The notes: generated by a model from the sequence alone, not told the origin. Positions 7,329 to 31,612 are shown, numbered from the stretch's first letter. The stretch: DNA of 32,000 bases from Candidatus Scalindua sp. (GCA_031316235.1 JALDRA010000001.1:1680001-1712000), one strand, 5' to 3'. Made by a program: numbers and translations.

Positions 7329-7475
7329 CTAAGGGTCCGGGAATCGAAAACACTCCTCATTCGCCTTCGTTGCGGCAAACAGCCCTGACAAGGCAAATAC
7401 ACCTAATTTAAACCCAAGCTCCTCCAGCTCCCGAGCAGTGAGATCTGGAGTCTTTCCTTCCCCTATCAAAATGTT
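7329..7475 (-). pseudogene. C-terminal fragment of a PEP mutase / isocitrate lyase family gene (methylisocitrate-lyase-like)
   Basis: The track ORF 7329..7520 contains NILIGEGKTPDLTARELEELGFKLGVFALSGLFAATKANEE. This matches the C-terminal GKTP...EL.ELG....P.s..raa pattern of that family. About 250 N-terminal residues are missing, and the similarity starts exactly at the addA stop codon. Confidence 0.35.
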
Positions 7476-10400
7476 ATTTACATATAGGTTCAAATTCACA
7501 CCACCTGCATTTACCCCCACTCACTTTTTCAAAGTCTCCATCCTTATGTGCGGAAAAAAACTTATCCAGCGTAGTATCGAGTTCTCTCCTAGCATGTACT
7601 GAGGTATCAATGATTACGGATCTGTCCGGAACGAGAAAATAGAGGATCGCTTCATCTACCTTTTCCCCATAAACAGCTTCAAGCGCCCTGGCATAAAGCT
7701 GCATCTGTATTCTATAGTGTTTTATCTTGTCGGGTATTTCACCCACCGTAATATTATTCGCCTTGTAATCAACGATCTTTACGCTGTTTTCATCTGTCAC
7801 ATAGAAAAGGTCTATCTGGCCTCGTATGGGAAATCCTTGACAATGAAAGATAAATGATATTTCCCTCTTCTGACATTTGCTGGCCTTTACCTCCTCACCA
7901 ACGGAACTACGGTAAAATGAGAGTACCCAGTTTGTAATGGTATCTATACTTTTTTGGCACGGGTCAAGTCCCGTGATCAGCAACTCTCGCTCTATATAAT
8001 CTTTGAGTTTACGACTGTTGTCTGAAAAATGGTACCTTTTAAAGATACGATGCACAATGTTCCCAAGTTCGTTGCTGGGTATTTCATCATCATTCTTCTC
8101 ACTCCTGTCCCCTTCCCTATCTGGCCCAGACCAATCTCGCTCTTGCACCCCTTGTAATCCCAGAATGGAATTAAAATAGTATCGTTGTGGGCAAAAGTGG
8201 AACGTAAGGATCTCGGTAACCGTGTAAAGATAGTGACTATGGTCGGCGGGTACAGTACAATTCACCATTGAGATGATATTTTTACCCGCATCAGCTATTA
8301 TTTTTTGAGGCGATGGAGTCTTAATTTCATTACCTGTTTCAATCTCTTTTTTGTATTGCGTGAGGAGTTTCACTCTCTTCGTTTCCTTCACCCCTTCTGA
8401 AACACGCTGGCCGCTCGAAGTTGTTAGTCCACCATCATCTTCTCCATTTATCGATGTATATCGTATCTCAAGCGTTTGAGACGGATCCTGCCCCTCTTTA
8501 TTGAGCCGTATAGTCTTGAGGGTCTCATCGTGGTCTTTATCGAGGCAAAGGATTGAGACGACATAGCTGAGCCAATTACCACTGTCTTTGTCTCCTTTCG
8601 CCTTACTCTTACTTGTGCCCCCTGTCAGTATCAGATGTTCCTGCGCCCTCGTCATTGCAACAAAGAGCAGCCGTTTTGATTCCTGTAACTCTTTTTGAGA
8701 GATTTCATTTCTAATTTGTTCATAACTCAGGGGTACTTCAGCTTCACTGGTTGAAGGATTCATTGTCTTAAAACTGATCCCATACTTTTTTGAAAAAACA
8801 AAATAATCGGAGGGTCGCGTATTGTCTCTATCAAGGTCGGCAACAATAACGATCGGGAATTCTAACCCTTTCGCAGAGTGGGTAGTAATTAATTTAACCA
8901 CATCATCCTCCTCAGATTCCACCGGCGCCTCTGATTCTCTTATCTCCCGAAACTTGTACCCTTCTACAATCGTAATAAAATCTCTGAGTGCCAAAGGTTC
9001 AAAATCTTCCTGACTCTTACACAGATCAACAAGCTTCAGGAGGTTTGCATAGCGTTTCTTTCCATTTGAGAAGAGAAGCATCTTTGATTGAAATTCCGTC
9101 TTCTTGAGGATAAAAGAGATCAATTGCCACAATGAGACTCTGGGTTTAAGGTCCTGTACCTCATGGAGGAGTTTCGTAAATTGTACAATCCTCTCTTTTG
9201 AACCGGTATCAATCTCTTGAATAGCCTCAACATCGGTCAGGACCTGGTAGAGGAGTCTCTTCTGCAGTTTACGATGAGCTCCCTCCCGGTTTTTATGAGC
9301 CGCATGGTTATGATGCGCATGATCAGAGAGCCAAAAGAGAGCGTCGTCATCTATTCCAACAAACGGTGACTTTAATACCGCGGCCAGATCTATTTCGTCA
9401 AGGGGAGATTCGACGACCTTGAGAAAGTTAATGAGGTCCTTTATCTCTGTCGTATTAAAGAATCCTCTTCCGCTCACAACATAATACGGTATCTCAGACT
9501 GCAAAAGGCTTTGTTCGTAGAGCTTTATGTCCGTCGTGCTCCGGAACAGAATAGCAAAATCTCTATACGAAACCTTCCTCCCCTCTTCCTTTTGGTTTGT
9601 TATCTTGATCTCACCCTGCTCAACAATTTCCTTGATCCTGTTCGCTATCTCTGTAGATTCTCGTCTCCTGGCCCTGATCTTATCTGCGCCATCCACTACA
9701 ACTATTTCAATTGATGGCAGTGATTTTTCCGAAAACTGTGCCCCCGCCTCTAGTTGATGTGAATTATGTAAGGAAGGAGTGGAGCTACTACTCGTATCCT
9801 TTTGTGCGTTACAATCTTCGTGTTCCCCATGTACACTCTCCGGCCATAGCTTTCCAAATAGGTGGTTTATAAAATCGAGCACCTGGGGGCGGCTTCTGAA
9901 ATTCTCATTCAAACGGATCAGAGACCCCGGGGCCATACCCTTCTGCATATCTTGAAATATCTCAACATCTGCATTTCGAAAACCATAAATGGATTGTTTT
10001 GCATCACCCACAACAAATAAATTCTCCTTACCCCTTATCAGGTCTATTATGCTCTTCTGCAATCTGCTGGTATCTTGAAATTCATCAACTAATATGAACT
10101 TGAATCTGTGTTGTATTTCAGCTCTTATATATTCGTTGCCTTGCAATAACGCTATCGTTTTCTCCTCAAGATCGGTAAAATCGACAAAACTCTCAGACAG
10201 CTTTCTCTCTCCGTAAGCAGTTTCAAAGTCCATAAGGAATTTCCTTACTACCATTTTGATTCTTGTTGAATACCCCTCCACGAGTAATCCTACCAGGGTT
10301 TCCAGCTCTTCGCGCAGGGAGCTCAATAGGTGTTTCACCTCGTTTGACACACTCAAATTTATGGAAGAGTGAATGGCCCTAACATCATTTAATAATAGAA

Positions 10401-11241
10401 GGGTGAGGTTATCCGCAGTTGGATCCCCAGTGGTTTTGATCGCCCCGGTTCTCCCTCCTTCTAAAGGAGACGAAAAGGGGTTGTGTTTTCCGTTTTTCCC
10501 GTATCTTTCATCAATACTCTTTTGAAGGTCTGCAGCATTCCATTGATTTAAGACCTGTCTTATCTTTTCCCTGCTCTTCGGCGTGATTTTTTTTTCAGAA
10601 TAGACTCTTTTGATTTCTCCTATCAACTCCCGAATCGTTTCATACAAACGCATAATATCACGTGACAGATCAGGCGTAATTACCGCATCAGAAACGGGAA
10701 CACAACCATTCCTGATCTTCTCGTAAAGGAGTATCAGATTCTCCTTGAATGACTTTATCCTGCCTCTTTTTGAATCTGTCTGTTGCCAGAATATGTCGTT
10801 GAGAAACGTATCTATTGATCCTTTCTCTACCCACTTTTCCAGCGTCTCTTCCAGTGAGTACTCTTTTATTCTATTCGCTTCAAGTTCATCCATAACAGAA
10901 AACTGAGGGTCAACACCCGCTTCTATGGCGTTTTCTCTCAACAATCGGGCGCAGAAGCTGTGGATGGTGGAGAGAAAGGCAAACTCTATCTCCTGGCGCT
11001 CTTTCTCCATCCCTTTTTGCTCAAACGAGTTGGCAACCCTCATCTTCATTTCATTTGCTGCCTTTTCGGTAAAGGTGAGAGTCAGGATTTCATTGATTGA
11101 AGCCTTTCGTGTAACTACAAGATTGACAAAACGCTCCACCAGGACACTTGTCTTCCCTGATCCGGGGCCTGCTACCATACAGAGGTCCCTGTCCGTAATC
11201 TTCACACCCTTTTCTTGAGACGGAGTTAGTTTGCTTTCCAT
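7474..11241 (-). CDS. addA: AddA-type ATP-dependent helicase/nuclease (UvrD-like helicase plus C-terminal PD-(D/E)XK nuclease)
   Basis: 1255-aa ORF. It has Walker A AGPGSGKTSVLVERF, LTFTEKAANEM, ILVDEFQDTS, VGDAKQSIYGFRNA, TTHSAKGLEFPIV and RLLFVAMTRAQEHL. The C-terminal nuclease has GQIDLFYV...IVDYK plus Cys motifs FCPQRYYF ... CRWCEFEPIC. Confidence 0.85.
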   Translation of the reverse strand: MESKLTPSQEKGVKITDRDLCMVAGPGSGKTSVLVERFVNLVVTRKASINEILTLTFTEKAANEMKMRVANSFEQKGMEKERQEIEFAFLSTIHSFCARLLRENAIEAGVDPQFSVMDELEANRIKEYSLEETLEKWVEKGSIDTFLNDIFWQQTDSKRGRIKSFKENLILLYEKIRNGCVPVSDAVITPDLSRDIMRLYETIRELIGEIKRVYSEKKITPKSREKIRQVLNQWNAADLQKSIDERYGKNGKHNPFSSPLEGGRTGAIKTTGDPTADNLTLLLLNDVRAIHSSINLSVSNEVKHLLSSLREELETLVGLLVEGYSTRIKMVVRKFLMDFETAYGERKLSESFVDFTDLEEKTIALLQGNEYIRAEIQHRFKFILVDEFQDTSRLQKSIIDLIRGKENLFVVGDAKQSIYGFRNADVEIFQDMQKGMAPGSLIRLNENFRSRPQVLDFINHLFGKLWPESVHGEHEDCNAQKDTSSSSTPSLHNSHQLEAGAQFSEKSLPSIEIVVVDGADKIRARRRESTEIANRIKEIVEQGEIKITNQKEEGRKVSYRDFAILFRSTTDIKLYEQSLLQSEIPYYVVSGRGFFNTTEIKDLINFLKVVESPLDEIDLAAVLKSPFVGIDDDALFWLSDHAHHNHAAHKNREGAHRKLQKRLLYQVLTDVEAIQEIDTGSKERIVQFTKLLHEVQDLKPRVSLWQLISFILKKTEFQSKMLLFSNGKKRYANLLKLVDLCKSQEDFEPLALRDFITIVEGYKFREIRESEAPVESEEDDVVKLITTHSAKGLEFPIVIVADLDRDNTRPSDYFVFSKKYGISFKTMNPSTSEAEVPLSYEQIRNEISQKELQESKRLLFVAMTRAQEHLILTGGTSKSKAKGDKDSGNWLSYVVSILCLDKDHDETLKTIRLNKEGQDPSQTLEIRYTSINGEDDGGLTTSSGQRVSEGVKETKRVKLLTQYKKEIETGNEIKTPSPQKIIADAGKNIISMVNCTVPADHSHYLYTVTEILTFHFCPQRYYFNSILGLQGVQERDWSGPDREGDRSEKNDDEIPSNELGNIVHRIFKRYHFSDNSRKLKDYIERELLITGLDPCQKSIDTITNWVLSFYRSSVGEEVKASKCQKREISFIFHCQGFPIRGQIDLFYVTDENSVKIVDYKANNITVGEIPDKIKHYRIQMQLYARALEAVYGEKVDEAILYFLVPDRSVIIDTSVHARRELDTTLDKFFSAHKDGDFEKVSGGKCRWCEFEPICK
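11175..11228. repeat. Left copy of the 54-bp direct repeat (inside the addA 5' end, codons 5-22)
   Basis: ccatacagaggtccctgtccgtaatcttcacacccttttcttgagacggagtta is repeated at 17600-17653, an offset of 6425 bp. There is one mismatch (11194 c versus 17619 a), which is synonymous in the addA frame (ACG/ACT Thr). Confidence 0.95.
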
Positions 11242-11842: not shown

Positions 11843-12462
<620 letters not shown>

Positions 12463-12558: not shown

Positions 12559-12582
12559 GATAATAACCATTTTGGAAAATGT
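12559..12582. repeat. Left copy of a 24-bp direct repeat (extended similarity 12547-12582)
   Basis: gataataaccattttggaaaatgt versus gataataaccattgtggaaaatgt at 16832-16855 (1 mismatch). Looser similarity extends about 12 bp to the left (ggaatgtagccg / ggatgtaatca). Confidence 0.8.
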
Positions 12583-12893
12583 GTCGTATTTTGTTGATTA
12601 GTTTTATTGCTATTGATCGTCCTGATGATTGGCGAGATACAAAAATTCATGTGAACAGGGGAATATTGGAGAAAAATCATTATAAGGTTCCGGAAACGGT
12701 TAGAAACTTTATGTATTACAAAGCTAAGAGAGGACAAAAAGTATTAAGGTCAATGTCTGACCGTCAATGGGATCGCATAGGTCAAGATTATAAGAAAAAC
12801 CCTGAGAAGTTTCGAGACTCTGAAATGTTTCACGCTATTACACGTGATTCTATAATGTTTGGAGATGAAGCATTTGATGATCTCAGAAAATAA
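12579..12893 (+). CDS. Hypothetical protein (104 aa; start uncertain)
   Basis: An ORF only, with no motif I recognise (…KAKRGQKVLRSMSDRQWDRIGQDYKKNPEKFRDSEMFHAITRDS…). It begins inside the 24-bp repeat. It could be a gene fragment. Confidence 0.3.
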   Translation: MCRILLISFIAIDRPDDWRDTKIHVNRGILEKNHYKVPETVRNFMYYKAKRGQKVLRSMSDRQWDRIGQDYKKNPEKFRDSEMFHAITRDSIMFGDEAFDDLRK

Positions 12894-13032: not shown

Positions 13033-13183
13033 ACCCTTATTGTGAACGTCTTATAAGGGCACCATATGCTGTATTATTTTCTTGGAACAGAAATTTGTCA
13101 TGCTATCCGAAATATATGGCAGCTGTATATTTCTGATAGCACAGTTGCAGTCCATTTGACTGTTGAACGGCAAATTGAATCAA

Positions 13184-13570
13184 ATGTTTATGTGTTTAAC
13201 AACTAACAAAAAGGTTATCTTTGTGGCATTTGCTATCGAAGACGAAAGGCAAAGAGATTTTCTTAAAGGTCAATCTTTAAACACAGATTCGCCATTCGAG
13301 TACATTGATATGTCAGTAAAAAATGCATACGATTCAGAATGGAAAGAACGTGTTCGCACACGTATTCGTCGTTCAGATGGCGTCATTGCGCTTGTAAGTA
13401 AAAATTCCTTTACGTCAAGCGGTCAAAAATGGGAAATTTCATGTGCCAAAGAGGAAAAGAAAAAGATTCTTGGCATTTGGGCCTACAAAGATGACCGGAC
13501 AAACCTTGTCGGTGTGAATACTGTGGTTTGGACATGGCCCGCAATAAAGAAATTCATCGATAGCCTTTAA
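13184..13570 (+). CDS. ThsB-like TIR domain protein (DUF1863 / MTH538 TIR-like family)
   Basis: KKVIFVAFAIEDERQRDF...SEWKERVRTRIRRSDGVIALVSKNSFTSSGQKWEISCAKEEKKKILGIWAYKD is collinear with Bacillus ThsB as I remember it (KRVFFSFHYQD ... TCVLIGSQTFNRRWVRYEIMKSIEKGNKIIGIH). That includes the catalytic Glu (KWEI, codon 13433-13435). The start is uncertain: TTG 13163, ATG 13184 or ATG 13190. Confidence 0.75.
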   Translation: MFMCLTTNKKVIFVAFAIEDERQRDFLKGQSLNTDSPFEYIDMSVKNAYDSEWKERVRTRIRRSDGVIALVSKNSFTSSGQKWEISCAKEEKKKILGIWAYKDDRTNLVGVNTVVWTWPAIKKFIDSL

Positions 13571-13588
13571 AAACCGGAGGTATTTTAT

Positions 13589-14563
13589 ATGCGAATAGCA
13601 CTTATCGTAGGTATCAACTGCTACGAGCATGGTAGCAACCTATTTGGTTGTGTGGACGATGCACATGCCGTCAAAGCGATTTTGGAACGCCACGATGGTG
13701 GCGCTGTGAACTTCGATTGTCGATTACTCACCGGTACAGGTCTAAGTGATCGAGTAGATCGTAGTGAGTTAAAAGATCAGATTGAGGAGCTTTTCAAACC
13801 CGATGCAGAAATTGCTCTATTTTATTTTGCTGGACATGGCCATATCGAAGCGTCGGGGGGCTATCTTCTTGCAACAGACTCTAAACGTGGTGATGATGGA
13901 GTGTCTCTTTCCGAAATTTTGAATTTTGCAAACACTTCGCCAGCAAAAAACAAGGTCATTGTATTGGACAGCTGTCACTCAGGTATCGCAGGCACACCTC
14001 CAACCGGTGATCAGTTGGCCTCATTATCAGAAGGCCTTACCGTTCTAACCGCATCCACAAAAGATCAGTACGCAACTGAAGAGAACGGCCGTGGCGTATT
14101 TACATCTCTCTTTGTGGACGCACTATCTGGGAGTGCGGCCAACCTGACTGGCGATATTACTCCAGGTAGTGTATACGCTCACATAGATCAATCGCTGGGA
14201 GCATGGGAGCAACGACCAGTATTTAAGACTAATGTCAAACAATTCGTTTCATTGCGGAAATCATCACCTATGATAGAAATTTCTGATTTAAGACGATTAA
14301 CAGAGTTTTTTTCTGCTCCTGGGGCTGAGTATGCACTTGATCCTACTTATGAGCCTGAGATGAAAGGTCGAGATGCGGGAATGCCTTTGCCAGACCCTGA
14401 TAACACTCGCATTTTTGCAGTCTTGCAACGTTACAATCGTCTAAACCTTCTTGTCCCAGTCAATGCTCCACATATGTGGAACGCTGCCATGGAGAGTAAG
14501 TCTTGCAGACTTACAGCACTCGGAGAACACTATAGAAGATTGGTAGAAAATAACCGAATATAA
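13589..14563 (+). CDS. Caspase-like protease (peptidase C14 domain) with an uncharacterised C-terminal domain
   Basis: 324 aa. GGAGG at 13575-13579 precedes the ATG, and the gap after the TIR gene stop is 18 bp. The N-terminal half is [10 protein letters not shown]...CVDDAHAV...[11 protein letters not shown] (His codon 13835-13837) ...[11 protein letters not shown] (Cys codon 13973-13975), which is the canonical caspase/metacaspase His-Cys dyad context. Residues about 175-324 carry no motif I recognise. Confidence 0.8.
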
Positions 14564-14641
14564 TAGGAGCGTATGCCGCCCAACTATATATTTAGTTGCC
14601 AGGTTAATAAGTGAGGCGTTACGATTTTGTTAAGTTTTGAA

Positions 14642-15208
14642 TTATTTGGCCGCTTTTTGGCTTTCTCGAATGTAGCTATAAAGCGTTGGTTTTGAAATTC
14701 GCATCAGTTCGCAAATTTTGCCAACGGTCATTTTTTTCTCGAGGTAAAGATTTACAGCAACGCCCCGCTTTTCCTTATCCAGTGTCTTACGACGACCACC
14801 ACGACGGCCGCGCGCGCGAGCAGCAGCTAAACCGGCCTGCGTTCGCTCTTGGATAAGGTTGCGCTCGAATTCCGCAAGTGCGCCAAATAGATGAAATGTG
14901 AGTTTTCCGGTAGGAGTGCTGGTATTAATGGTTTCATGGAGGCTTTCGAGGCCCACGCCCTTTTTATCGAGATAGCGCACCCACTCAATAAGGTCACGCA
15001 ATGACCTACCCAGCCGATCAAGCCGCCAAACCACAAGAGTGTCACCCTTGCGCAATAGCTCTTTTGCTTTCTCTAAGCCTGGGCGTTTGGCTACTGTGCC
15101 GCTAACCTTGTCGATGAGTACCTTTTCACATCCGGCTTTCTTCAAAGCTTTCTTTTGCATATCAGTATTTTGTTCAAGGGTTGAAACCCGAGCATAACCG
15201 ATCTTCAT
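14642..15208 (-). CDS. Small serine recombinase (resolvase/DNA-invertase family)
   Basis: MKIGYARVSTLEQNTDMQ (catalytic Ser), GDTLVVWRLDRLGRS, FGALAEFERNLIQERTQAGLAAARARG, and a C-terminal HTH (TVGKICELMRISKPTLYSYI). It is collinear with Hin/Gin and Tn3-type resolvases and about 188 aa long. The track start TTG 15223 is replaced by ATG 15208. Confidence 0.9.
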   Translation of the reverse strand: MKIGYARVSTLEQNTDMQKKALKKAGCEKVLIDKVSGTVAKRPGLEKAKELLRKGDTLVVWRLDRLGRSLRDLIEWVRYLDKKGVGLESLHETINTSTPTGKLTFHLFGALAEFERNLIQERTQAGLAAARARGRRGGRRKTLDKEKRGVAVNLYLEKKMTVGKICELMRISKPTLYSYIRESQKAAK

Positions 15209-15331
15209 GGCAGGTACTTCCAAATAGTAAAAAAACTCGAAAATCTTTTTTGAATTGTTACTTAGATTACTTTACTGGCTATCTTGCCTTTTTATGCCAC
15301 CAAATACAAGGTAAAAACCGGTATTAGCATG

Positions 15332-15448: not shown

Positions 15449-15751
15449 TCAATCATCGAACATAGTTTCTATGTCTCTGTGGCCTTCAATAATAGTTACA
15501 ATATCCAAATAGTCATTATTGTACATGAAGAAAATGACATAGTTGCCATGCACAAAACTGCGCAGCCCTTCCATTAATTGCGGCCTTGGCCGTCCTATTT
15601 TTCCGGGCAGGCGAGCCAGATTTCTACATTGTTGGCGTAGTTTGTCTGTGTATTGTAAAGCGATTTGTAGACTGCCGCTTTCTTTGGCAATGTATCTTTT
15701 AATTTGAATAAGATCGTCTTTAGCTTGATCCAGATAGCGCAATTTATGCAT
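15449..15751 (-). CDS. parE: ParE/RelE-family type II toxin
   Basis: 100 aa. It has A..DL..I..YI near the N-terminus and a HGNYVIFFMY...LDIVTIIEGHRD C-terminus, typical of ParE. It lies 11 bp downstream of the ParD gene. Confidence 0.8.
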   Translation of the reverse strand: MHKLRYLDQAKDDLIQIKRYIAKESGSLQIALQYTDKLRQQCRNLARLPGKIGRPRPQLMEGLRSFVHGNYVIFFMYNNDYLDIVTIIEGHRDIETMFDD

Positions 15752-15762
15752 ACGAAGACTTT

Positions 15763-15990
15763 CTATTGGCCTTTATCATTGGCGAGGGCTTCTCCTATAT
15801 CGTCATCGCTATTGCTTCCACCACGCTTAATTGCTGTGCCAATATGTTTTCTTAATGCTTTTAGTTTAGCTTCTCTCTCTTCTACAAGTCGTAAACCTTC
15901 ACGCACTACCTCACTGGCGTTATTGTAACGTCCTGCTTTTACCTGATTACGAATAAATTTGTTGAAATGTTCACCTATTGCAAAACTCAT
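15763..15990 (-). CDS. parD: ParD-family (CC2985-type) antitoxin
   Basis: 75 aa. FIRNQVKAGRYNNASEVVREGLRLVEEREAKLKALR is the conserved ribbon-helix-helix ParD signature. AGGAGG precedes the ATG. Confidence 0.85.
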   Translation of the reverse strand: MSFAIGEHFNKFIRNQVKAGRYNNASEVVREGLRLVEEREAKLKALRKHIGTAIKRGGSNSDDDIGEALANDKGQ

Positions 15991-16931: not shown

Positions 16932-17222
16932 ATGGCGCGAATTGATATTGATGATCCCTATACGGCTTTTCTGGAAAGTCAGGTTAAAGCCGGGCTTTTT
17001 AGTTCTATTTCGGAAGCTGCACGCGATGCAATCCGCAAGCAAATGGAAGAGCACGAAAAACGAAGAGTTACCTCTATTTATGCCGCAATTGCAAAAGGTG
17101 AAGACTCTATACAAGCCGGTCGGACATTACCTTACTCACAAAACCTTATGGCAGAAATATCTAAAAAAGGGAAACAAGCTGCGCTTGCTGAAAAGTCTGT
17201 AAAACATGAAATCAGGCCATAA
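16932..17222 (+). CDS. parD: ParD-family antitoxin (second copy, divergent)
   Basis: 96 aa. FLESQVKAGLFSSISEAARDAIRKQMEEHE matches the ParD/CC2985 signature. AAGGAGG at 16918-16924 precedes the ATG. This is preferred over the overlapping track ORF 16843..17202. Confidence 0.75.
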   Translation: MARIDIDDPYTAFLESQVKAGLFSSISEAARDAIRKQMEEHEKRRVTSIYAAIAKGEDSIQAGRTLPYSQNLMAEISKKGKQAALAEKSVKHEIRP

Positions 17223-17599: not shown

Positions 17600-17653
17600 C
17601 CATACAGAGGTCCCTGTCAGTAATCTTCACACCCTTTTCTTGAGACGGAGTTA
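17600..17653. repeat. Right copy of the 54-bp direct repeat (orphan copy of addA codons 5-22)
   Basis: See 11175-11228. On the minus strand it reads ATG AGT ATA ACT CCG ... = MSITPSQEKGVKITDRDLCMGLY-stop. The ATG is supplied by the terminal inverted repeat of the adjacent MITE. Confidence 0.95.
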
Positions 17654-17857: not shown

Positions 17858-18041
17858 TTGACAGTAGGCAATAGGCAGTTAACAGTAAGCAATTATTTGC
17901 TACAAAACCACACGGGTAATCACTGCGAAAATATCAAAATCACCCCCTAAACCCCACAAACAATGCCCACCTGCTTACTACCAATTTAATTGCCTACTGC
18001 TAACTGCTCATTGTCTATTGCCCACTGTCAACTGCCTACTG
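17858..18041. repeat. Long imperfect inverted repeat (family D) abutting the addB stop codon
   Basis: The arms are built of cagtaggca / ctattgcc motifs. The best pair is ttgacagtaggcaatag (17858-17874) versus the reverse complement of 18015-18031, with 1 mismatch in 17. About 90 bp of unrelated sequence lies between the arms. Confidence 0.6.
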
Positions 18042-21000
18042 TTTTCGCATAACCCTCCACTTATCAATACGGCAGACACTTGCAAAATCACAATTCCCCT
18101 CACCACAGCGGTCTAAATCATGTGGAGCAAGTGCAATCCTTCCTTTCCGAATTTCTTCGGAAAACTTTACGATGAGCTCCTTTGTCTCCTCCAACCGCTT
18201 GTTAATCTCTTTTGTATCTCCAGAAAGTGATTTCTTCGATTGCCCTATCTTGAGTCTATATCTTTCTATCAATTCCCGATTATAGATCCCCGTTTTTTTA
18301 GAGGTCTTCAGTGCATAAAATTGAGCGGCAACGGGCTCAATCTTAAACACCTCTCTCAACGCAAGTGCATAAACGGGGAGTTGGAGATCTATTCCCTCTT
18401 CAATGTCTTGTATCCCAAACTCTGTCTTGCCGTATTTATAGTCAATAATTATACCGATTTTTTCCCCGTTCACCGTAGCAACATCAACCCTGTCTATCTT
18501 TCCGGAAACCTCTAACCGTCCCGGTTTTTTGTCTACTATTTTTAAGGGAGCATTCGTTTCACCCCCAAACTTTTCCTCAAACAGCAAAGGAGCGAATAAC
18601 GAAAATTCGACCTCTTTTTCTGTAGACTCAAATGCCAAGAGGGCCTTAAGCATCTCGTTCTTAATCTTCAACTCTTCAAAACCGATTACTATTCCTCTGG
18701 TTTCTTGTTCAAAACACCTCTCAAATAACTCTTGAATCTCTTGTTCTTTTTTTCCTTTGATATACTCTTCCAGAACTCCATGAATTATTTTTCCCTGCAA
18801 TAATGAATCGAGAGCTCGTGCGGCGGCCTGTCTTAGGTTTAGCGTATCCCCACCAAAGAACTTGTATGGGCACTGGGCATAATCTTTTAAATTTGAAGGT
18901 GAAAATCTTGTGGTTGTTTCACGAATCTTTTTTATTACTCTTCTGTCGAAGAGTTTGACGTTTACGTTTCCGTAAGAATCCATGAGCCTTTTTAATCTGC
19001 TCAGCTCTTCCCTGAACCGACTTCCATTCTCACTGTTATTATAGAGCCACAGGGCAACATCCTCTTCGGATTGCTCATGAGTTGTTGTGTAGGGAACGGT
19101 AAAATGGTAATAGACAAAGCTCTTTAGATCGGCAGGAGTAACTATCTCCTCCGGTTCAGGAATTACCTGAGAGAGGCCTCTTTTCACTAACATTTTCTGT
19201 GCCATCTCTTTCGTGAACATTTTTTTTATCTCGGAGAGGAAAAAGGAGGGGAGCGTCACATTACCATCTCTGTTTGCTGATGGGTAGGAGAGATAGAGCC
19301 TATCCTTTGCACGTGTAAGAGCGATGTAGAAGAGATATCTCTCATCATCCATCTGTGCAATTGCCTCTCTCAAGACGACCTGTCCGGCGCTTTTAAGTCT
19401 CTTTCTGTAGAAGTCTTTCAGGAACAGATCCTCCCGCACCTGCCTTGGGAACTCTTTTTCAAGGAGTCCTCCGACAAATACCACCGGGACCTCCCACTGC
19501 CTTGCCTCCAAAACATTAATAACGTTGACAACATCCTTTCTCCTGTCTCTTTTCCCATGCAATGTTAACGCCAACTGGGACATAACGATCCGATTGAATC
19601 CCTCAAATGGAAGATCCTCCATCTCGTTATAGAGTTCTCTGAAGATTGTACTATTAAGGATATTGAGGAATTCCCCCAAGGCAGATGCGTCCCATTTCAT
19701 ACGGTCTACTATTTCTTGATTATGATTACGGGCCCTCATTTCACCGGCACCTTCTTCATCTCTGCATGTATCGGAAAGCGTAAACGCCGCCTTATAGAAG
19801 AGATTCAGGATTGCTGCATAGCACTGGTAATGTACACTGAAAGGATGTATCCCCTCCATGTTCCTGAAGATATTTTTCAGTTGTCTCAAAAACTTGTTAA
19901 CCGGCATTAATTCAAAAGACGAGGTCAGTTCAAGCCATCTGTCACAATCGTTTATCGTCCCTTTTGACAAATGCGCTAATTCTAACCTATATAACAGGTC
20001 TCTCTTAATACCGGAATAGGAGTTCAGGACATCCCAGACAGATTTATCCTGCCAATTTTCCAGATAGACTTTTGTTGTCTTCACGACTGCCTGAATGAGT
20101 GGATTCTTAAGCAAGGGTCTTTTTCCATAAATCCTTACGGGAATTGAGAATCTCGTAAATGTCTCCTCTACCATGTCCTGATATTTTTCGACATTTCTCA
20201 ATATTACGGCTATATGACTGAAACGGTAGCCATTTTTATAGATTAATTTTCTTATCCTGCGGGCAATCTGTTCTACCTCATCCTGAATGTTTGCTGCCTC
20301 AATAATTTGAAATGTCGTTACTTCCTGACTCGGTATGGTTGTTGATGAACAGGGAGTATTCGAAAAACAGCCAGCTTCGATATTCAGTAACATTTGACAG
20401 GAAGTTCTTCTGTTCTCTTTTAACTGTATTTCGTGAAGTCCCAATTTTACAAGTCTGGCGTATGTCTTGCGAGCAGTCCGAAAGAGAGGCGTGTGAGATC
20501 GAGAAGGGTGATACGGCAGGGTAATATACACGTCCGGAACAAGTGAAGATAATTTCTCTATACATTTAAATTCAAGATGGGTGTAATCGTGGAAGCCATC
20601 AATTACTAATAATTTGACTGAGGAAAACGCCTCTTCATTGAGATGCTCTATTGCCTCTCTCAGATAATCTTCTTTATCCATTAACCCTTTTTTCCGCAAA
20701 AACCCTTGATACCTATCGTAGAGTGTGACAAGTTCATTGAGTTTTACGTCAAAGAGGGAGTCTTTTTTACCCGTCATAATTGTTCTGAGTGCTGACTGAA
20801 ATGATGGTGGATCGAGTGAAAGTTCTTTGATCTCTCTTACAAAACTGAGAAAAGAGCTCTTAAACCCGGGAAACTCTAAGACCTCTGAGAAATAACCCTT
20901 TTCGATCTCCTTAAAGAGACACGACAGAACCAGGTCCTTTTCACAATCATCAATAGGTCTCCTCAGTTTCGGCACCACACCTTTTTTCTTCCCCTTTATC

Positions 21001-21311
21001 GGTTCCCGAAGGGGAAGAGTGTCAACTATTCTCTCTGCCAATCCGGAAAAGGTAACCAGGCTGGAGTCAAAGTACCCCGCAACTCCTGAGCTCCTCAGGA
21101 TATGATCTCTCAGATGTTCTACCTGACTATGGGTAGGCAAGAGGAAGATAACGTTCTCTTCTTTATGCTCTTTTATATAGTGGATGAATTTGTGAATTAC
21201 CAGGTGTGTTTTTCCGCTACCAGCTCTGCCTAAGACTAAAAACCGCTCTTTCATGATGGGATGTATTGTCTGTTTATCTATTTCTTGCCATTCTACCAAA
21301 ATGTGCCTCAT
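18036..21311 (-). CDS. addB: AddB-type helicase-nuclease subunit (degenerate helicase fold plus Fe-S PD-(D/E)XK nuclease)
   Basis: 1091-aa ORF. It has an N-terminal P-loop LGRAGSGKTHL and YLFYIALTRAKDRLYLSY. The C-terminal nuclease has YAQCPYKFF ... GKIDRVD ... IIDYKYGK ... CGEGNCDFASVC. It sits upstream of and co-oriented with addA, as in the canonical addB-addA order. An alternative start at ATG 21254 (MKERFLVLGRAGSGKT) would remove the overlap with the upstream small ORF. Confidence 0.8.
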   Translation of the reverse strand: MRHILVEWQEIDKQTIHPIMKERFLVLGRAGSGKTHLVIHKFIHYIKEHKEENVIFLLPTHSQVEHLRDHILRSSGVAGYFDSSLVTFSGLAERIVDTLPLREPIKGKKKGVVPKLRRPIDDCEKDLVLSCLFKEIEKGYFSEVLEFPGFKSSFLSFVREIKELSLDPPSFQSALRTIMTGKKDSLFDVKLNELVTLYDRYQGFLRKKGLMDKEDYLREAIEHLNEEAFSSVKLLVIDGFHDYTHLEFKCIEKLSSLVPDVYITLPYHPSRSHTPLFRTARKTYARLVKLGLHEIQLKENRRTSCQMLLNIEAGCFSNTPCSSTTIPSQEVTTFQIIEAANIQDEVEQIARRIRKLIYKNGYRFSHIAVILRNVEKYQDMVEETFTRFSIPVRIYGKRPLLKNPLIQAVVKTTKVYLENWQDKSVWDVLNSYSGIKRDLLYRLELAHLSKGTINDCDRWLELTSSFELMPVNKFLRQLKNIFRNMEGIHPFSVHYQCYAAILNLFYKAAFTLSDTCRDEEGAGEMRARNHNQEIVDRMKWDASALGEFLNILNSTIFRELYNEMEDLPFEGFNRIVMSQLALTLHGKRDRRKDVVNVINVLEARQWEVPVVFVGGLLEKEFPRQVREDLFLKDFYRKRLKSAGQVVLREAIAQMDDERYLFYIALTRAKDRLYLSYPSANRDGNVTLPSFFLSEIKKMFTKEMAQKMLVKRGLSQVIPEPEEIVTPADLKSFVYYHFTVPYTTTHEQSEEDVALWLYNNSENGSRFREELSRLKRLMDSYGNVNVKLFDRRVIKKIRETTTRFSPSNLKDYAQCPYKFFGGDTLNLRQAAARALDSLLQGKIIHGVLEEYIKGKKEQEIQELFERCFEQETRGIVIGFEELKIKNEMLKALLAFESTEKEVEFSLFAPLLFEEKFGGETNAPLKIVDKKPGRLEVSGKIDRVDVATVNGEKIGIIIDYKYGKTEFGIQDIEEGIDLQLPVYALALREVFKIEPVAAQFYALKTSKKTGIYNRELIERYRLKIGQSKKSLSGDTKEINKRLEETKELIVKFSEEIRKGRIALAPHDLDRCGEGNCDFASVCRIDKWRVMRKQ

Positions 21312-21621: not shown

Positions 21622-24171
21622 CTACGGGACGAACACAAGGCGGAAGCCAACGCTGAAGCTACTGCTCCCCGGGTGGTAGTCGTCGCGAACAGCAGAACGG
21701 CAATACTGCGCATAGCTGCCCCAACTGCCACCGCGAAACACACGGCTCGAACCGGTTTCCGGCCCCTGAGGATCTTCTACAACTCCCTGTTTTTCGCACT
21801 CTTCATAATATGTTCCGCTATACCAATCCATACACCACTCCCAAACATTGCCGTGCATATCGCTCAACCCCCACGCATTTGGAGGGTAAGCGCCAACCGG
21901 GGTGGTTGTGCCAACATATTTCCCCTCTGGATAGTTCTTATACGGAAAATTTCCATAATAATTTGCCTGCTCGGTGGTCAGATTGTCACCGGTATTAAAT
22001 GGCGTTCTTGTACCGGCACGGCAGGCATATTCCCATTCAGCTTCGGTGGGCAAACGGAAACCCTTCGCAGAAATGTCGCAATTCCTGTTATTGTCAACAT
22101 CATAACAGGGTTCAAGATTCTTCCGCTTGTTCAAATAGTTGGCAAATGCCACAGATCCATCCCAGCTCACCGTCACAATGGGATGTTTTTCCATAGATTT
22201 ATTCAGGATAAAAAATAGACCGTCTCTGTTTTTTTTAATTTTGCAATAATCACTCAAAATATTAAACCATTCACTCTCTTTTACTTCTGATGGAGCAAGA
22301 GAATTCAGGAAATCACAGTACTGCTGGTTGGTGATTTCATAGGCGCTCATTGTAAAACCATCTAATTGTACCTGGTGTGTTGGTTTTTCATCGACACTAC
22401 CATATTCCGAACTATCACCCATTTCGAAAGTACCTCCTTTGACCTCGACAAATTGATCCAGCTCCAGCAGGTTTTGGATACGGTGCTCTCTTCTCCAGGG
22501 TTCAACAACCTTATCATTGAATGGCTTCGAGAATTTCACTGAGAGCACGACGAATATCACAATTGAAAAAACCATGGCGATAGTCATCGAACGATTTTTT
22601 TTGCTCTTACGAATAAATTTCAACTGTTCAGGACTCATATCATTACAAAAATGGCTGCGGTATTTCAGCACGTCCCGCAATTCCCGACCGCTCAAGAGAA
22701 ACTTCCGCCGCCTTACCCTCATCCATGTACGAAAACTTTCGTTCAGCAGTCGCTCCGCCTGCTTAGCCGCGGCAAGCAATTCTCCGGCTAACGACTCTAA
22801 TGCCGGAATGAGCCGTTCATGAGCCAGGCGGTACATAACCTGAGATTCGGATTGCGATTGTGCCGGCAGCTGCTCCAGAATACGCACCTTTTGTGAAGCA
22901 AGATAGCGCAGGTTACCCTGCATGCGGTTTATGGGCAGTTGTGCTTTTTTTGCCAATTCCGAGGTCGATTTCCCTTGTGAGAGCCGTTGATGGGAAATAT
23001 CAGGATCGATGAGGTCCAGCAGCGCATTTTGCATTGGAGAGTGCTCATGCTCCGGTATATCAGCTTCGAGTTTGCCTCGTATATAGGTACGCAGTAATCC
23101 GGTAACACCTCCTGCATCCTTGAATTTTCCCAGGCTGATATCGCTATCAGATACACCGTATAGCTCACTGAGTACCATCATGCCAATACCAATTTCCACT
23201 GGAGATACCTTGCCCTTGTCAGACATGGCATTGACCATTTCCAGAAGCACAGCATTATCAGGCGCCAGACCGCTTTCTCTAGAGAGAACGGCCATGTTTT
23301 CGCGTGCCTGCTCATCGGTAAATATTTTTAACGGATATTTTGGAGGATGAAAATCGGGGATGGTGGATTCGAAATCAAACCAGGTGGAGGCATACTCTTC
23401 CCGGAACGCGATGATCCAGGTGGTTGTGTAGGGAGGCTTCTGAGCTACGATCTTTTTGAACAGCTCAAAGAACGCACCATGTTTTTCCGGTGAAAGCTGC
23501 TCGGCCTGATCAATGATGATCACTTTTTTCGTCACGGAAACGTTATTGACGACATCATCAAGTGTCTCTAGGCTCTCCTTTTCATCCGGGCACACAACAT
23601 GGATCGCCCGTAAGAGCTCTCCGGATGGATTCTCGGGTCTCGCTTCCCAGTAAATGGGGACAACACCATACTTTTCTTTCTCCCTGGCAAGCGTGTATGC
23701 CAGGCCTGCCCGTAAAAGCGACGTTTTTCCAGCACCGGACTCCCCTTTCAGGGCAGTAAAACAGATTTGCGAATCCAATACCCAACCGAGAAGTTTACTC
23801 AGGTCTGCCTCCCTGCCCAGTTGCGAAAAGATCTCACCATCCATTTCCCCAAAAGCGAACGGGCCTTTAATTGCACTTGGCTTGGCCGTATCGGTGATAT
23901 CAATTTTGCGGGGAATTGCCTTCTTCCACACCAGCACAATTCCCCAGACAAAAGGCACAATAGCAGCCACATTCAGCCAGGGTAATACGTCCTTGAAAAA
24001 ATCCAGCAACGCAGGATTGCCTTTAAGAAAGCGCGGTAAAACATTTGCCAGAGCAAGAGATAAGAATCCAATGGCAAAGAGTACACGTTCTCTCCTGCCG
24101 TACTTGATAATCCGAACGATATTTTCAACTTGCTCAGAAAACCTGGTTGTCTGTTCTGAGATATTTGGCAT
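21622..24171 (-). CDS. Membrane-embedded STAND-type P-loop NTPase (nSTAND-like) fused to a C-terminal FGE-sulfatase (SUMF1) domain
   Basis: 849 aa. Two N-terminal hydrophobic helices (VLFAIGFLSLALANVL, LNVAAIVPFVWGIVLVW) come first. Next is the FGE...GRE...L-x-GESGAGKTSLLRAGL Walker A and VIIIDQAEQL Walker B, then a helical/wHTH-like region ending YRLAHERLIPAL. A third TM helix follows (MTIAMVFSIVIFVVLSV). Last is a full FGE-sulfatase domain (GGTFEMG...EKPTHQV...HPIVTVSW...GFRLPTEAEWEYACRAG...GLSDMHGNVWEWCMDWY...RVFRGGSW...VGFRLV). Confidence 0.8.
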   Translation of the reverse strand: MPNISEQTTRFSEQVENIVRIIKYGRRERVLFAIGFLSLALANVLPRFLKGNPALLDFFKDVLPWLNVAAIVPFVWGIVLVWKKAIPRKIDITDTAKPSAIKGPFAFGEMDGEIFSQLGREADLSKLLGWVLDSQICFTALKGESGAGKTSLLRAGLAYTLAREKEKYGVVPIYWEARPENPSGELLRAIHVVCPDEKESLETLDDVVNNVSVTKKVIIIDQAEQLSPEKHGAFFELFKKIVAQKPPYTTTWIIAFREEYASTWFDFESTIPDFHPPKYPLKIFTDEQARENMAVLSRESGLAPDNAVLLEMVNAMSDKGKVSPVEIGIGMMVLSELYGVSDSDISLGKFKDAGGVTGLLRTYIRGKLEADIPEHEHSPMQNALLDLIDPDISHQRLSQGKSTSELAKKAQLPINRMQGNLRYLASQKVRILEQLPAQSQSESQVMYRLAHERLIPALESLAGELLAAAKQAERLLNESFRTWMRVRRRKFLLSGRELRDVLKYRSHFCNDMSPEQLKFIRKSKKNRSMTIAMVFSIVIFVVLSVKFSKPFNDKVVEPWRREHRIQNLLELDQFVEVKGGTFEMGDSSEYGSVDEKPTHQVQLDGFTMSAYEITNQQYCDFLNSLAPSEVKESEWFNILSDYCKIKKNRDGLFFILNKSMEKHPIVTVSWDGSVAFANYLNKRKNLEPCYDVDNNRNCDISAKGFRLPTEAEWEYACRAGTRTPFNTGDNLTTEQANYYGNFPYKNYPEGKYVGTTTPVGAYPPNAWGLSDMHGNVWEWCMDWYSGTYYEECEKQGVVEDPQGPETGSSRVFRGGSWGSYAQYCRSAVRDDYHPGSSSFSVGFRLVFVP

Positions 24172-30193: not shown

Positions 30194-31612
30194 TTATTTA
30201 ACAATTCGAAGACTTCTCTTAAATTTTTTATTTTTAATTCTTTCCTGGTCGTCCCTTTTGTATTTTTCGATAACTTTATCGTAAGTACCGTTATATTTCG
30301 CGCATCTGATCTTGAGTATGTTATTAGCGTTTTGGATATACCACCAAGCTCCTGATCGTTTAAGCCTTGTATGGCTAATGAATTTATTGGCGCTTTCAAT
30401 AGCACCGCTGCCAATGTGATATCCTCCACGCTTGGCGGAACTGTAATCCATCTTTTCACAATGATTTGTGAGATAGGTATAAAACTTGTCAATTTTATCT
30501 TGAATATCTTGAGTTCGGGCTTTCATCTTTCCAAGACCGCCAAGCACCTCTTCATGGTAACCATAATATATTCTTGTCAGAGTCGCCTCACACCACTGTA
30601 GAGACTCTCTTGTCTCTTTTCCGTAATGGGCATTGGCTACACCATGGACATACTCCGAGCAATGGTAATAGTCGAGAATCTCTTTTGCCGAGGGAAATAT
30701 TTCTTTACATCGGTTCCAGATCCAGGGAGCACCGTCTCCTATAATTCCCAGGCGTATCTTCTCGTGGGGAATAAGCCCGGCTTCTTTGATCTTAACCAAG
30801 TATTCTGCTAATTCGTGATCTGCACAAACCTGGTGCCAGCTAATTAAATGAATAATAGTTTGACCATCGATGAGATACAGTCTAAAACCTTTAATCTCTT
30901 TGTATTCTCCCTTGCCTCTTTTCCCTTTACGGGGGTGAGGACTTGGCTCGGGACGCATCGGCCCGTGGGCTCCATCCAGGGCAAGCATCATAATGGGACG
31001 ACGAAACTTATCCACTGAGAGGTTTTCTATCTGCTTATCAATCTCTTCCCTGGGCGGGCAGACATCCAAAATTCCCACTTCTTGACCAATGGCATTCGTG
31101 GTCTCATGCATATGATGTTCACTCAGCTTTACTCCGGTTATTCTCTCGTAGGTTTCGCTGGCCGTCTCATAGGCCGTTTCGCTTGACAACCAGGCTTCCA
31201 CATCTTGCACATCATATTGCTTCGATGATTCAGACAATCCAAGGGCTTCGTCTAAAGGATAGTATCCTAAACGACACGCTCTGCAATAAAAATAAGGCCT
31301 GGTTAATTCAAATTGTCCGGCAAGGGTTTGGATAGTCTTGGATTGTTTTCCTTGTCTTTGCATACCCTTGCCGCATTCGGGGCAATCGCAGCTTTGCTGA
31401 TTCAATAAATGTCCAAATTTCCTCTCTATGAACCCAAGAATCAGTTGTCCTAATATCTCCGCTCTCTCTTCGAAAACAGCTTTTGAGATTTCTCCTAAAT
31501 CTTCCATTGAGTACTCTTCCTCAATCTTATCCAATCGGGTGTCTAAAAAACCATAAAATAAAGCTCTCCAGTTATCGGATGACTCTATCTTTCTTTTCAC
31601 CACACAAGTCAA
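30194..31612 (-). mobile_element. IS transposase gene, ISKra4-family-like
   Basis: 472-aa ORF with a zinc-ribbon-like CDCPECG ... YFYCRACRLGYYPLDEALGL followed by a large catalytic region (LALDGA...IIGDGAPWIWN...ILDYYHCSEYV...). It resembles ISKra4-family transposases as I remember them. The track start is TTG; the first ATG is at codon 36. I could not locate terminal inverted repeats, so the IS boundaries are undefined. Confidence 0.6.

Follow-up and report, generated by a model that had tools for sequence, protein, structure and literature searches.

We wanted to know whether two adjacent genes of Candidatus Scalindua sp. form an antiphage system in which a TIR protein signals to a protease, and to which known system such a pair would belong. 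The genes lie in a 32,000-nucleotide stretch of DNA (GCA_031316235.1, JALDRA010000001.1:1680001-1712000), read on one strand and hereafter called the window; all positions are counted from its first letter. A preliminary description of this DNA had proposed that the pair is either a member of type IV Thoeris or a divergent relative of it. Type IV Thoeris, composed of ThsB and ThsE, was defined by Rousset et al. (bioRxiv 10.1101/2024.10.24.620036; cited elsewhere as Science 387:510 (2025)), and the literature already covers this system type, with its signal molecule, its protease activity and a counter-defence used by phage. The elements of the window pair are as follows.

13184..13570, + strand: thsB, the gene of a small protein with a TIR domain (Pfam ThsB_TIR; identity to PsTIR; E84)
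13576..13580, + strand: GGAGG, Shine-Dalgarno sequence ahead of the protease gene (direct sequence reading)
13589..14563, + strand: thsE, encoding a caspase-like protease of 324 aa (Pfam Peptidase_C14; identity to PsCaspase; H83/C129 dyad)

Reading of the sequence gave two co-directional open reading frames separated by an 18-bp spacer, with GGAGG in front of the second, just as had been described. Counted from the ATG at 13184, the thsB product has 128 aa and its frame closes with a TAA at 13568-13570; alternative in-frame starts are an ATG at 13190 (126 aa) and a TTG at 13163. The glutamate that the preliminary description had placed in KWEI was found in the motif QKWEI, where it is E84. Likewise, the His-Cys dyad that it had placed in the second gene was found in the motifs FYFAGHGH (residues 78-85, with H83 in AGHGH) and VLDSCHSG (residues 125-132, with C129).

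For the domain assignment, we used the profiles that had been named for these genes. ThsB matched Pfam ThsB_TIR PF08937 with 35 bits (cut-off 21.2, E = 1.9e-8), and ThsE matched Peptidase_C14 PF00656 over residues 1-212 with 59 bits (cut-off 21.4, E = 7.4e-16), both matches being significant and above the cut-offs. The second TIR family suggested for ThsB, TIR_2 PF13676, gave 26.8 bits, slightly under its cut-off of 28. The ThsB and 'caspase' models of PADLOC, a tool that had also been suggested, matched the gene pair as well. The NCBIfam model 'caspase_w_EACC1' was tried for ThsE and rejected, as it scored 97 bits against a cut-off of 140. Sequence searches of the PDB returned no match for the protease and only noise for the TIR protein (cGAS, E about 0.08).

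The window proteins were compared with those of the characterised type IV system of Pseudomonas sp. 1-7, in which PsTIR E79Q and PsCaspase C129A each abolish defence (bioRxiv 10.1101/2024.10.24.620036). The PsTIR sequence was obtained by translating the cloned DNA given in Table S2 of Rousset et al. A search with it recovered JF55_15340 [Pseudomonas sp. 1-7] (our P0121) at 100% identity, and the gene adjoining it on the Pseudomonas sp. 1-7 contig (GCA_000742775.1) encodes a 328-aa Peptidase_C14 protein, which is PsCaspase. The window TIR protein is 73% identical to PsTIR (89/122, E = 7e-68). Its E84 aligns with PsTIR E79, QKWEI falling on QKWEI, and in the E79Q construct of Table S2 the change from GAG to CAG lies exactly within this motif. 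From its first to its last residue, the window protease shares 61% identity and 76% similarity with PsCaspase (324/328 aa, E = 4e-153), and its C129 aligns with C129 of PsCaspase, the residue mutated by Rousset et al. On these alignments, the window pair is very probably a type IV Thoeris system orthologous to that of Pseudomonas sp. 1-7. Between the two possibilities left by the preliminary description, the pair comes out as a member, and a close one.

Two open frames can also arise by chance, and a resemblance to TIR and caspase proteins can be spurious. Such a reading has practically no chance of being right and is already refuted by the profile, homologue and linkage searches. The profile scores exceed curated cut-offs, and public data hold 7,824 relatives of the protease and 7,046 of the TIR protein with E ≤ 0.001, the best 120 protease relatives being 324-325 aa long and 82-94% identical to that of the window. 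Moreover, the TIR and protease genes are conserved as a pair. When one genome was scanned for each species, 447 loci encoding a protease relative came up; among the best 80 of them (68-94% identity), a TIR-like gene lies upstream of the protease in 80/80, so the two families are linked elsewhere. In 63 of the 80 loci this gene is of the PsTIR type, and 5-54 nt separate its end from the downstream protease gene; it is 50-63% identical to EcTIR, the TIR protein of the second validated system, in 13 (L016, L017, L033, L047, L052, L058, L060, L062, L065, L070, L072, L073, and L082), and in the remaining 4 is replaced by other TIR-like genes or by two such genes. The proteases of the 13 EcTIR-type loci are 69-82% identical to the window protease. 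The presence of a different TIR subfamily beside such similar proteases implies that the sensor has been swapped on a near-constant effector. Two TIR-like genes were seen upstream of the protease in L042, L044, and L071.

In multiple alignments, E84 was invariant across 73 TIR homologues and H83 and C129 across 84 protease homologues; the proposed catalytic residues therefore hold in a proper alignment. Profile scores, linkage and invariant residues were the points named beforehand on which computation could overturn the proposal, and all of them came out in its favour. Orthology, intact reading frames, conserved catalytic residues and strict gene linkage were found for the window pair, and the published detection rule of Rousset et al. 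would pick up this locus.

The copies most similar to this operon come from metagenome-assembled genomes (MAGs) of Planctomycetota and Verrucomicrobia, while the best 80 of the 447 loci include Planctomycetota, Verrucomicrobia, Proteobacteria, Bacteroidota, Firmicutes, Cyanobacteria, candidate-phyla-radiation (CPR) groups, and one archaeon. A window-like protease, 75-80% identical, is encoded in Archaeon BMS3Abin16 (L015) and in six CPR/Patescibacteria MAGs (L025, L029, L031, L036, L038, and L050). Such identity in an archaeon and in CPR MAGs points to a very recent and wide horizontal spread. The module is a compact unit of 1.4 kb that is an integron cassette in many genomes, which illustrates how this defence travels, and a compact cassette-borne unit may partly explain why proteins that are 68-94% identical occur in many phyla and in an archaeon.

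From the characterised orthologues, we infer the biochemical activities of the pair and its role in defence in the window host. Phage infection would activate the TIR protein; in the case of T6, this step needs the capsid vertex protein (Rousset et al.). Given its 73% identity to PsTIR, the TIR protein would then convert NAD+ to N7-cADPR with E84 as catalytic residue. N7-cADPR would activate the caspase-like protease with its H83/C129 dyad, probably via the C-terminal domain. The protease, expected to be arginine-specific and promiscuous, would cleave many cellular proteins after arginine, EF-Tu included. This cleavage would halt growth or kill the infected cell, and no phage progeny would be released, as in abortive infection.

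We also looked at the C-terminal domain of the protease, through which the signal would probably act. The preliminary description had given it about 150 aa and no motif that could be placed. It indeed falls outside all known families, and its size had to be corrected, as it covers residues ~215-324, or about 110 aa. A profile of the domain gave nothing significant against Pfam and the PDB. Alignments revealed conserved positions at P252, E255, Q280, H295, A299/A300, L308, T309, G312, and Y315, with the consensus LDPxxEP...LQ...HM..AA...LT..G..Y. A search for other architectures, covering 1.84 billion representatives, gave 473 representative clusters with this domain, and in every full-length protein checked with Pfam a caspase domain precedes it. 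The odd matches were fragments or apparent chimeras and were rejected as other architectures. One of them, P0348 (359 aa), starts with an Eco57I/N6_Mtase part and continues with an incomplete caspase domain and the C-terminal domain of Thoeris IV; a chimera or a frameshift in the gene call is more probable here than a genuine new architecture. Another, P0342, has merely a weak sub-threshold match to a transposase HTH. An AlphaFold2 model of the protease, built from 50 close homologues, reached a mean pLDDT of 58.5, with most of the C-terminal half below 50, a quality judged insufficient for comparing folds. Binding of the signal by the C-terminal domain of the caspase was put forward as a hypothesis by Rousset et al. 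(bioRxiv 10.1101/2024.10.24.620036), and the preliminary description's suggestion of a signal-sensing module amounts to the same hypothesis.

We wanted to place the pair in its genomic context, which the preliminary description had taken for a mobile island with toxin-antitoxin modules and a restriction-modification remnant. This was borne out by the following features.

11175..11228: first of two direct repeats of 54 nt (left copy), falling within the addA-like gene at its 5' end and a candidate for the island's left boundary (repeat search)
11849..12391, + strand: N-6 DNA methylase fragment, a restriction-modification remnant (Pfam N6_Mtase, profile positions 184-276 of 311 only)
12579-12893, + strand: 104-aa open reading frame just upstream of the Thoeris pair (no Pfam match; gene call in the identical Logan contigs L085 and L086)
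14642..15223, - strand: small serine recombinase (resolvase), the sole recombinase in the island (Pfam Resolvase, 162 bits)
15449..15990, - strand: ParE toxin (15449-15751) and ParD antitoxin (15763-15990) (Pfam ParE_toxin and ParD_antitoxin)
16932-17222, + strand: solitary ParD-like antitoxin gene in the island, with no obvious toxin partner
17600..17653: second direct repeat of 54 nt (right copy), next to addB and carrying a displaced piece of the 5' end of addA

The two repeat copies (family D1) are identical at 53/54 positions, and their similarity ends abruptly on both sides. An AddA-like helicase-nuclease gene lies at 7474-11241 and an AddB-like gene at 18036-21311, both on the minus strand. 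The right copy carries 24 displaced codons from the 5' end of addA, headed by an ATG of their own, MSITPSQEKGVKITDRDLCM... The positions of the repeats and the displaced addA remnant indicate that an island of 6,425 bp separates addB from addA, with the methylase fragment, the 104-aa open reading frame, the Thoeris pair, the resolvase, ParE/ParD, and the ParD-like gene as its content. Elsewhere in the window, an 849-aa protein (21622-24171, minus strand) has a STAND NTPase part (nSTAND1/NACHT) joined to an FGE-sulfatase domain at the C-terminus, an architecture that is unusual for a sensor, a sensor role being possible. Close to the end of the window is a transposase-like gene of the UPF0236 family (30194-31612, minus strand).

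To define the limits of the module itself, we compared the window with homologous loci. BLASTN similarity to other loci runs from 13206 to 14583/14584 and covers the module only. Two short boxes lie at its edges.

13162..13168, + strand: GTTGAAC, fitting GTTRRRY (attC R' box), probable 5' cassette boundary (hand alignment)
14578..14584, + strand: GCCCAAC, fitting RYYYAAC (attC R'' box), the sole attC remnant, where BLASTN similarity ends

At the place of GTTGAAC, L003, L004, L007, and L015 have GTTGGGC, and their similarity begins there. In many other loci, the box equivalent to GCCCAAC opens an obvious full attC site. A covariance model of attC was built from 13 sites of homologous loci; having no consensus base pairs, it scores sequence only. 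This model recovered the known estX and aadA1 attC sites of the class 1 integron that an E. coli plasmid carries (L001), and in L007 (1032-2599), L011 (4290-5879), and L016 (2086-3721) it matched attC on either side of the module, L011 and L016 being multi-cassette arrays. A heuristic combining a regular expression with folding picked out no more than 5 loci and proved too strict. In the class 1 integron of E. coli plasmid NZ_CP041112 (L001 3891-4760), the TIR gene and a shortened protease gene follow aadA1. Applied to the window, the covariance model found no attC at E ≤ 1, and a complete cassette boundary was not found there. As the boundary boxes are kept and the attC site is absent, the window module seems to have been an integron cassette and to have lost this site since.

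The same comparison revealed a change at the start of the TIR gene.

13205..13206, + strand: junction of a 26-nt deletion (alignment with homologous loci)

The window lacks 26 nt that are found in L003, L004, L007, L013, and L015, and this stretch holds an AAGGAG ribosome-binding site and the TIR ATG. In L003, the missing sequence is AAAAAGGAGAATAAAAAATGGCAGAC, and it is flanked by two copies of ACAAAAAGG. The preliminary account of the first gene has to be corrected here: the start codon is atypical, and the native Shine-Dalgarno sequence and ATG are deleted. The in-frame ATGs left upstream by the deletion are those at 13184 and 13190, neither with an obvious Shine-Dalgarno sequence, and they keep the TIR open reading frame intact. 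Two independent assemblies, SRR28338161 and SRR28338162, have exactly this junction, so it is no one-off assembly error. Loss of the native ribosome-binding site and ATG makes the function of the window copy uncertain.

Two other readings concern what the pair does, not what it descends from. The pair could be a divergent TIR-protease system that uses a signal other than N7-cADPR, or whose protease has specific instead of promiscuous targets. TIR clusters are common to Thoeris types that use different signals according to the literature, in which the position of a ligand pocket in the C-terminal domain is also still hypothetical. However, PsTIR and the unrelated-looking EcTIR both make the molecule that activates PsCaspase (Rousset et al.), the identities to the Pseudomonas pair extend over the C-terminal domain, and the motifs of this domain are kept across the family. 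This makes a different signal or target range highly improbable. The pair could also be type IV Thoeris by descent that is now non-functional in its host, with a TIR protein that is poorly or not translated, as a decaying cassette remnant in a degraded island. With the attC site gone beyond its first box, the neighbouring methylase gene reduced to a fragment, and the AAGGAG site and ATG of the five homologous loci deleted, the module could be an eroding copy. On the other hand, both frames are intact with all catalytic and invariant residues, the two upstream ATGs still permit a TIR protein 3-5 residues longer, the protease retains its own GGAGG, and the identical sequence in two independent assemblies indicates a stable allele. 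Altogether, we consider loss of function rather unlikely.

A further reading, improbable as a whole, has two separate parts. In one, the module would be a former cassette whose TIR gene has lost its own translation start and whose protease is perhaps an orphan receptor; in the other, the conserved C-terminal domain, for which Pfam and the PDB hold no sequence relative, would be an undescribed fold that senses a cyclic ADP-ribose isomer. If the TIR protein were no longer made, the intact protease could fire only on N7-cADPR from another TIR protein, or would have been recruited to another trigger. Under the preferred reading, that of a type IV Thoeris pair, the window copy is a natural example of a sensor gene that has lost its ribosome-binding site, and with such a copy one could find out what level of TIR expression the system needs.

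Finally, we compared the window pair with known systems. Types I and II Thoeris share with it a ThsB-type TIR protein that is both sensor and signal synthase, and the same signal-to-effector logic; their effectors are SIR2-SLOG ThsA or Macro-TM proteins, whereas that of the window is a caspase-like protease. In agreement with the preliminary description, thsB has no effector gene of the SIR2, SLOG, Macro or transmembrane type beside it; Pfam scans of the listed open reading frames of at least 90 aa, taken from the entire window, gave none of these domains. The brc22/brc23 system 'Tragantia' (Kieffer et al., bioRxiv 10.1101/2024.07.02.601719) is a mobile integron cassette encoding a ThsB homologue and a second protein of ~300 aa, which was called structurally similar to a membrane protein and not to a caspase; a Marinobacter homologue outside an integron has a pseudo-attC site (bioRxiv 10.1101/2024.07.02.601719). 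Compared by description, 'Tragantia' and the TIR-protease module are both two-gene, ThsB-type, and attC-associated. Our Marinobacter locus of the module, L067, has only a partial attC match, to be set beside the pseudo-attC site of 'Tragantia' in this genus. The E. coli 328 system (EcTIR and EcCaspase; Rousset et al., also used in PMC13243611) is type IV Thoeris, like the window pair, but EcTIR is a member of another TIR subfamily, one with an LFISHSW... N-terminus, while the window TIR protein is of the PsTIR type. EcTIR-type genes were not detected by tblastn with the window TIR protein as query at E 1e-5. E. coli plasmids carry the same TIR-protease pair as the window, with TIR proteins 71-81% and a protease 58% identical.

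The Pseudomonas sp. 1-7 system has, like the window, the TIR gene in front of the protease gene, and the proteins are of similar size (TIR protein of 123 aa against 126-128 aa in the window, protease of 328 aa against 324 aa). The catalytic Glu and Cys align, the Cys with the identical number (129), and the C-terminal domains of the two proteases align with a single 4-residue gap. In contrast, the genes overlap in Pseudomonas sp. 1-7 (ATGA) and are separated by 18 bp in the window, the N-terminus of the window TIR protein is altered by the 26-nt deletion, and host and genomic context differ. The family of the window pair is published and its mechanism characterised; within it the pair is ordinary, and its type is already known; to this family, it adds, as minor points, a cassette ancestry, a deletion of the ribosome-binding site and an island that splits addB from addA.
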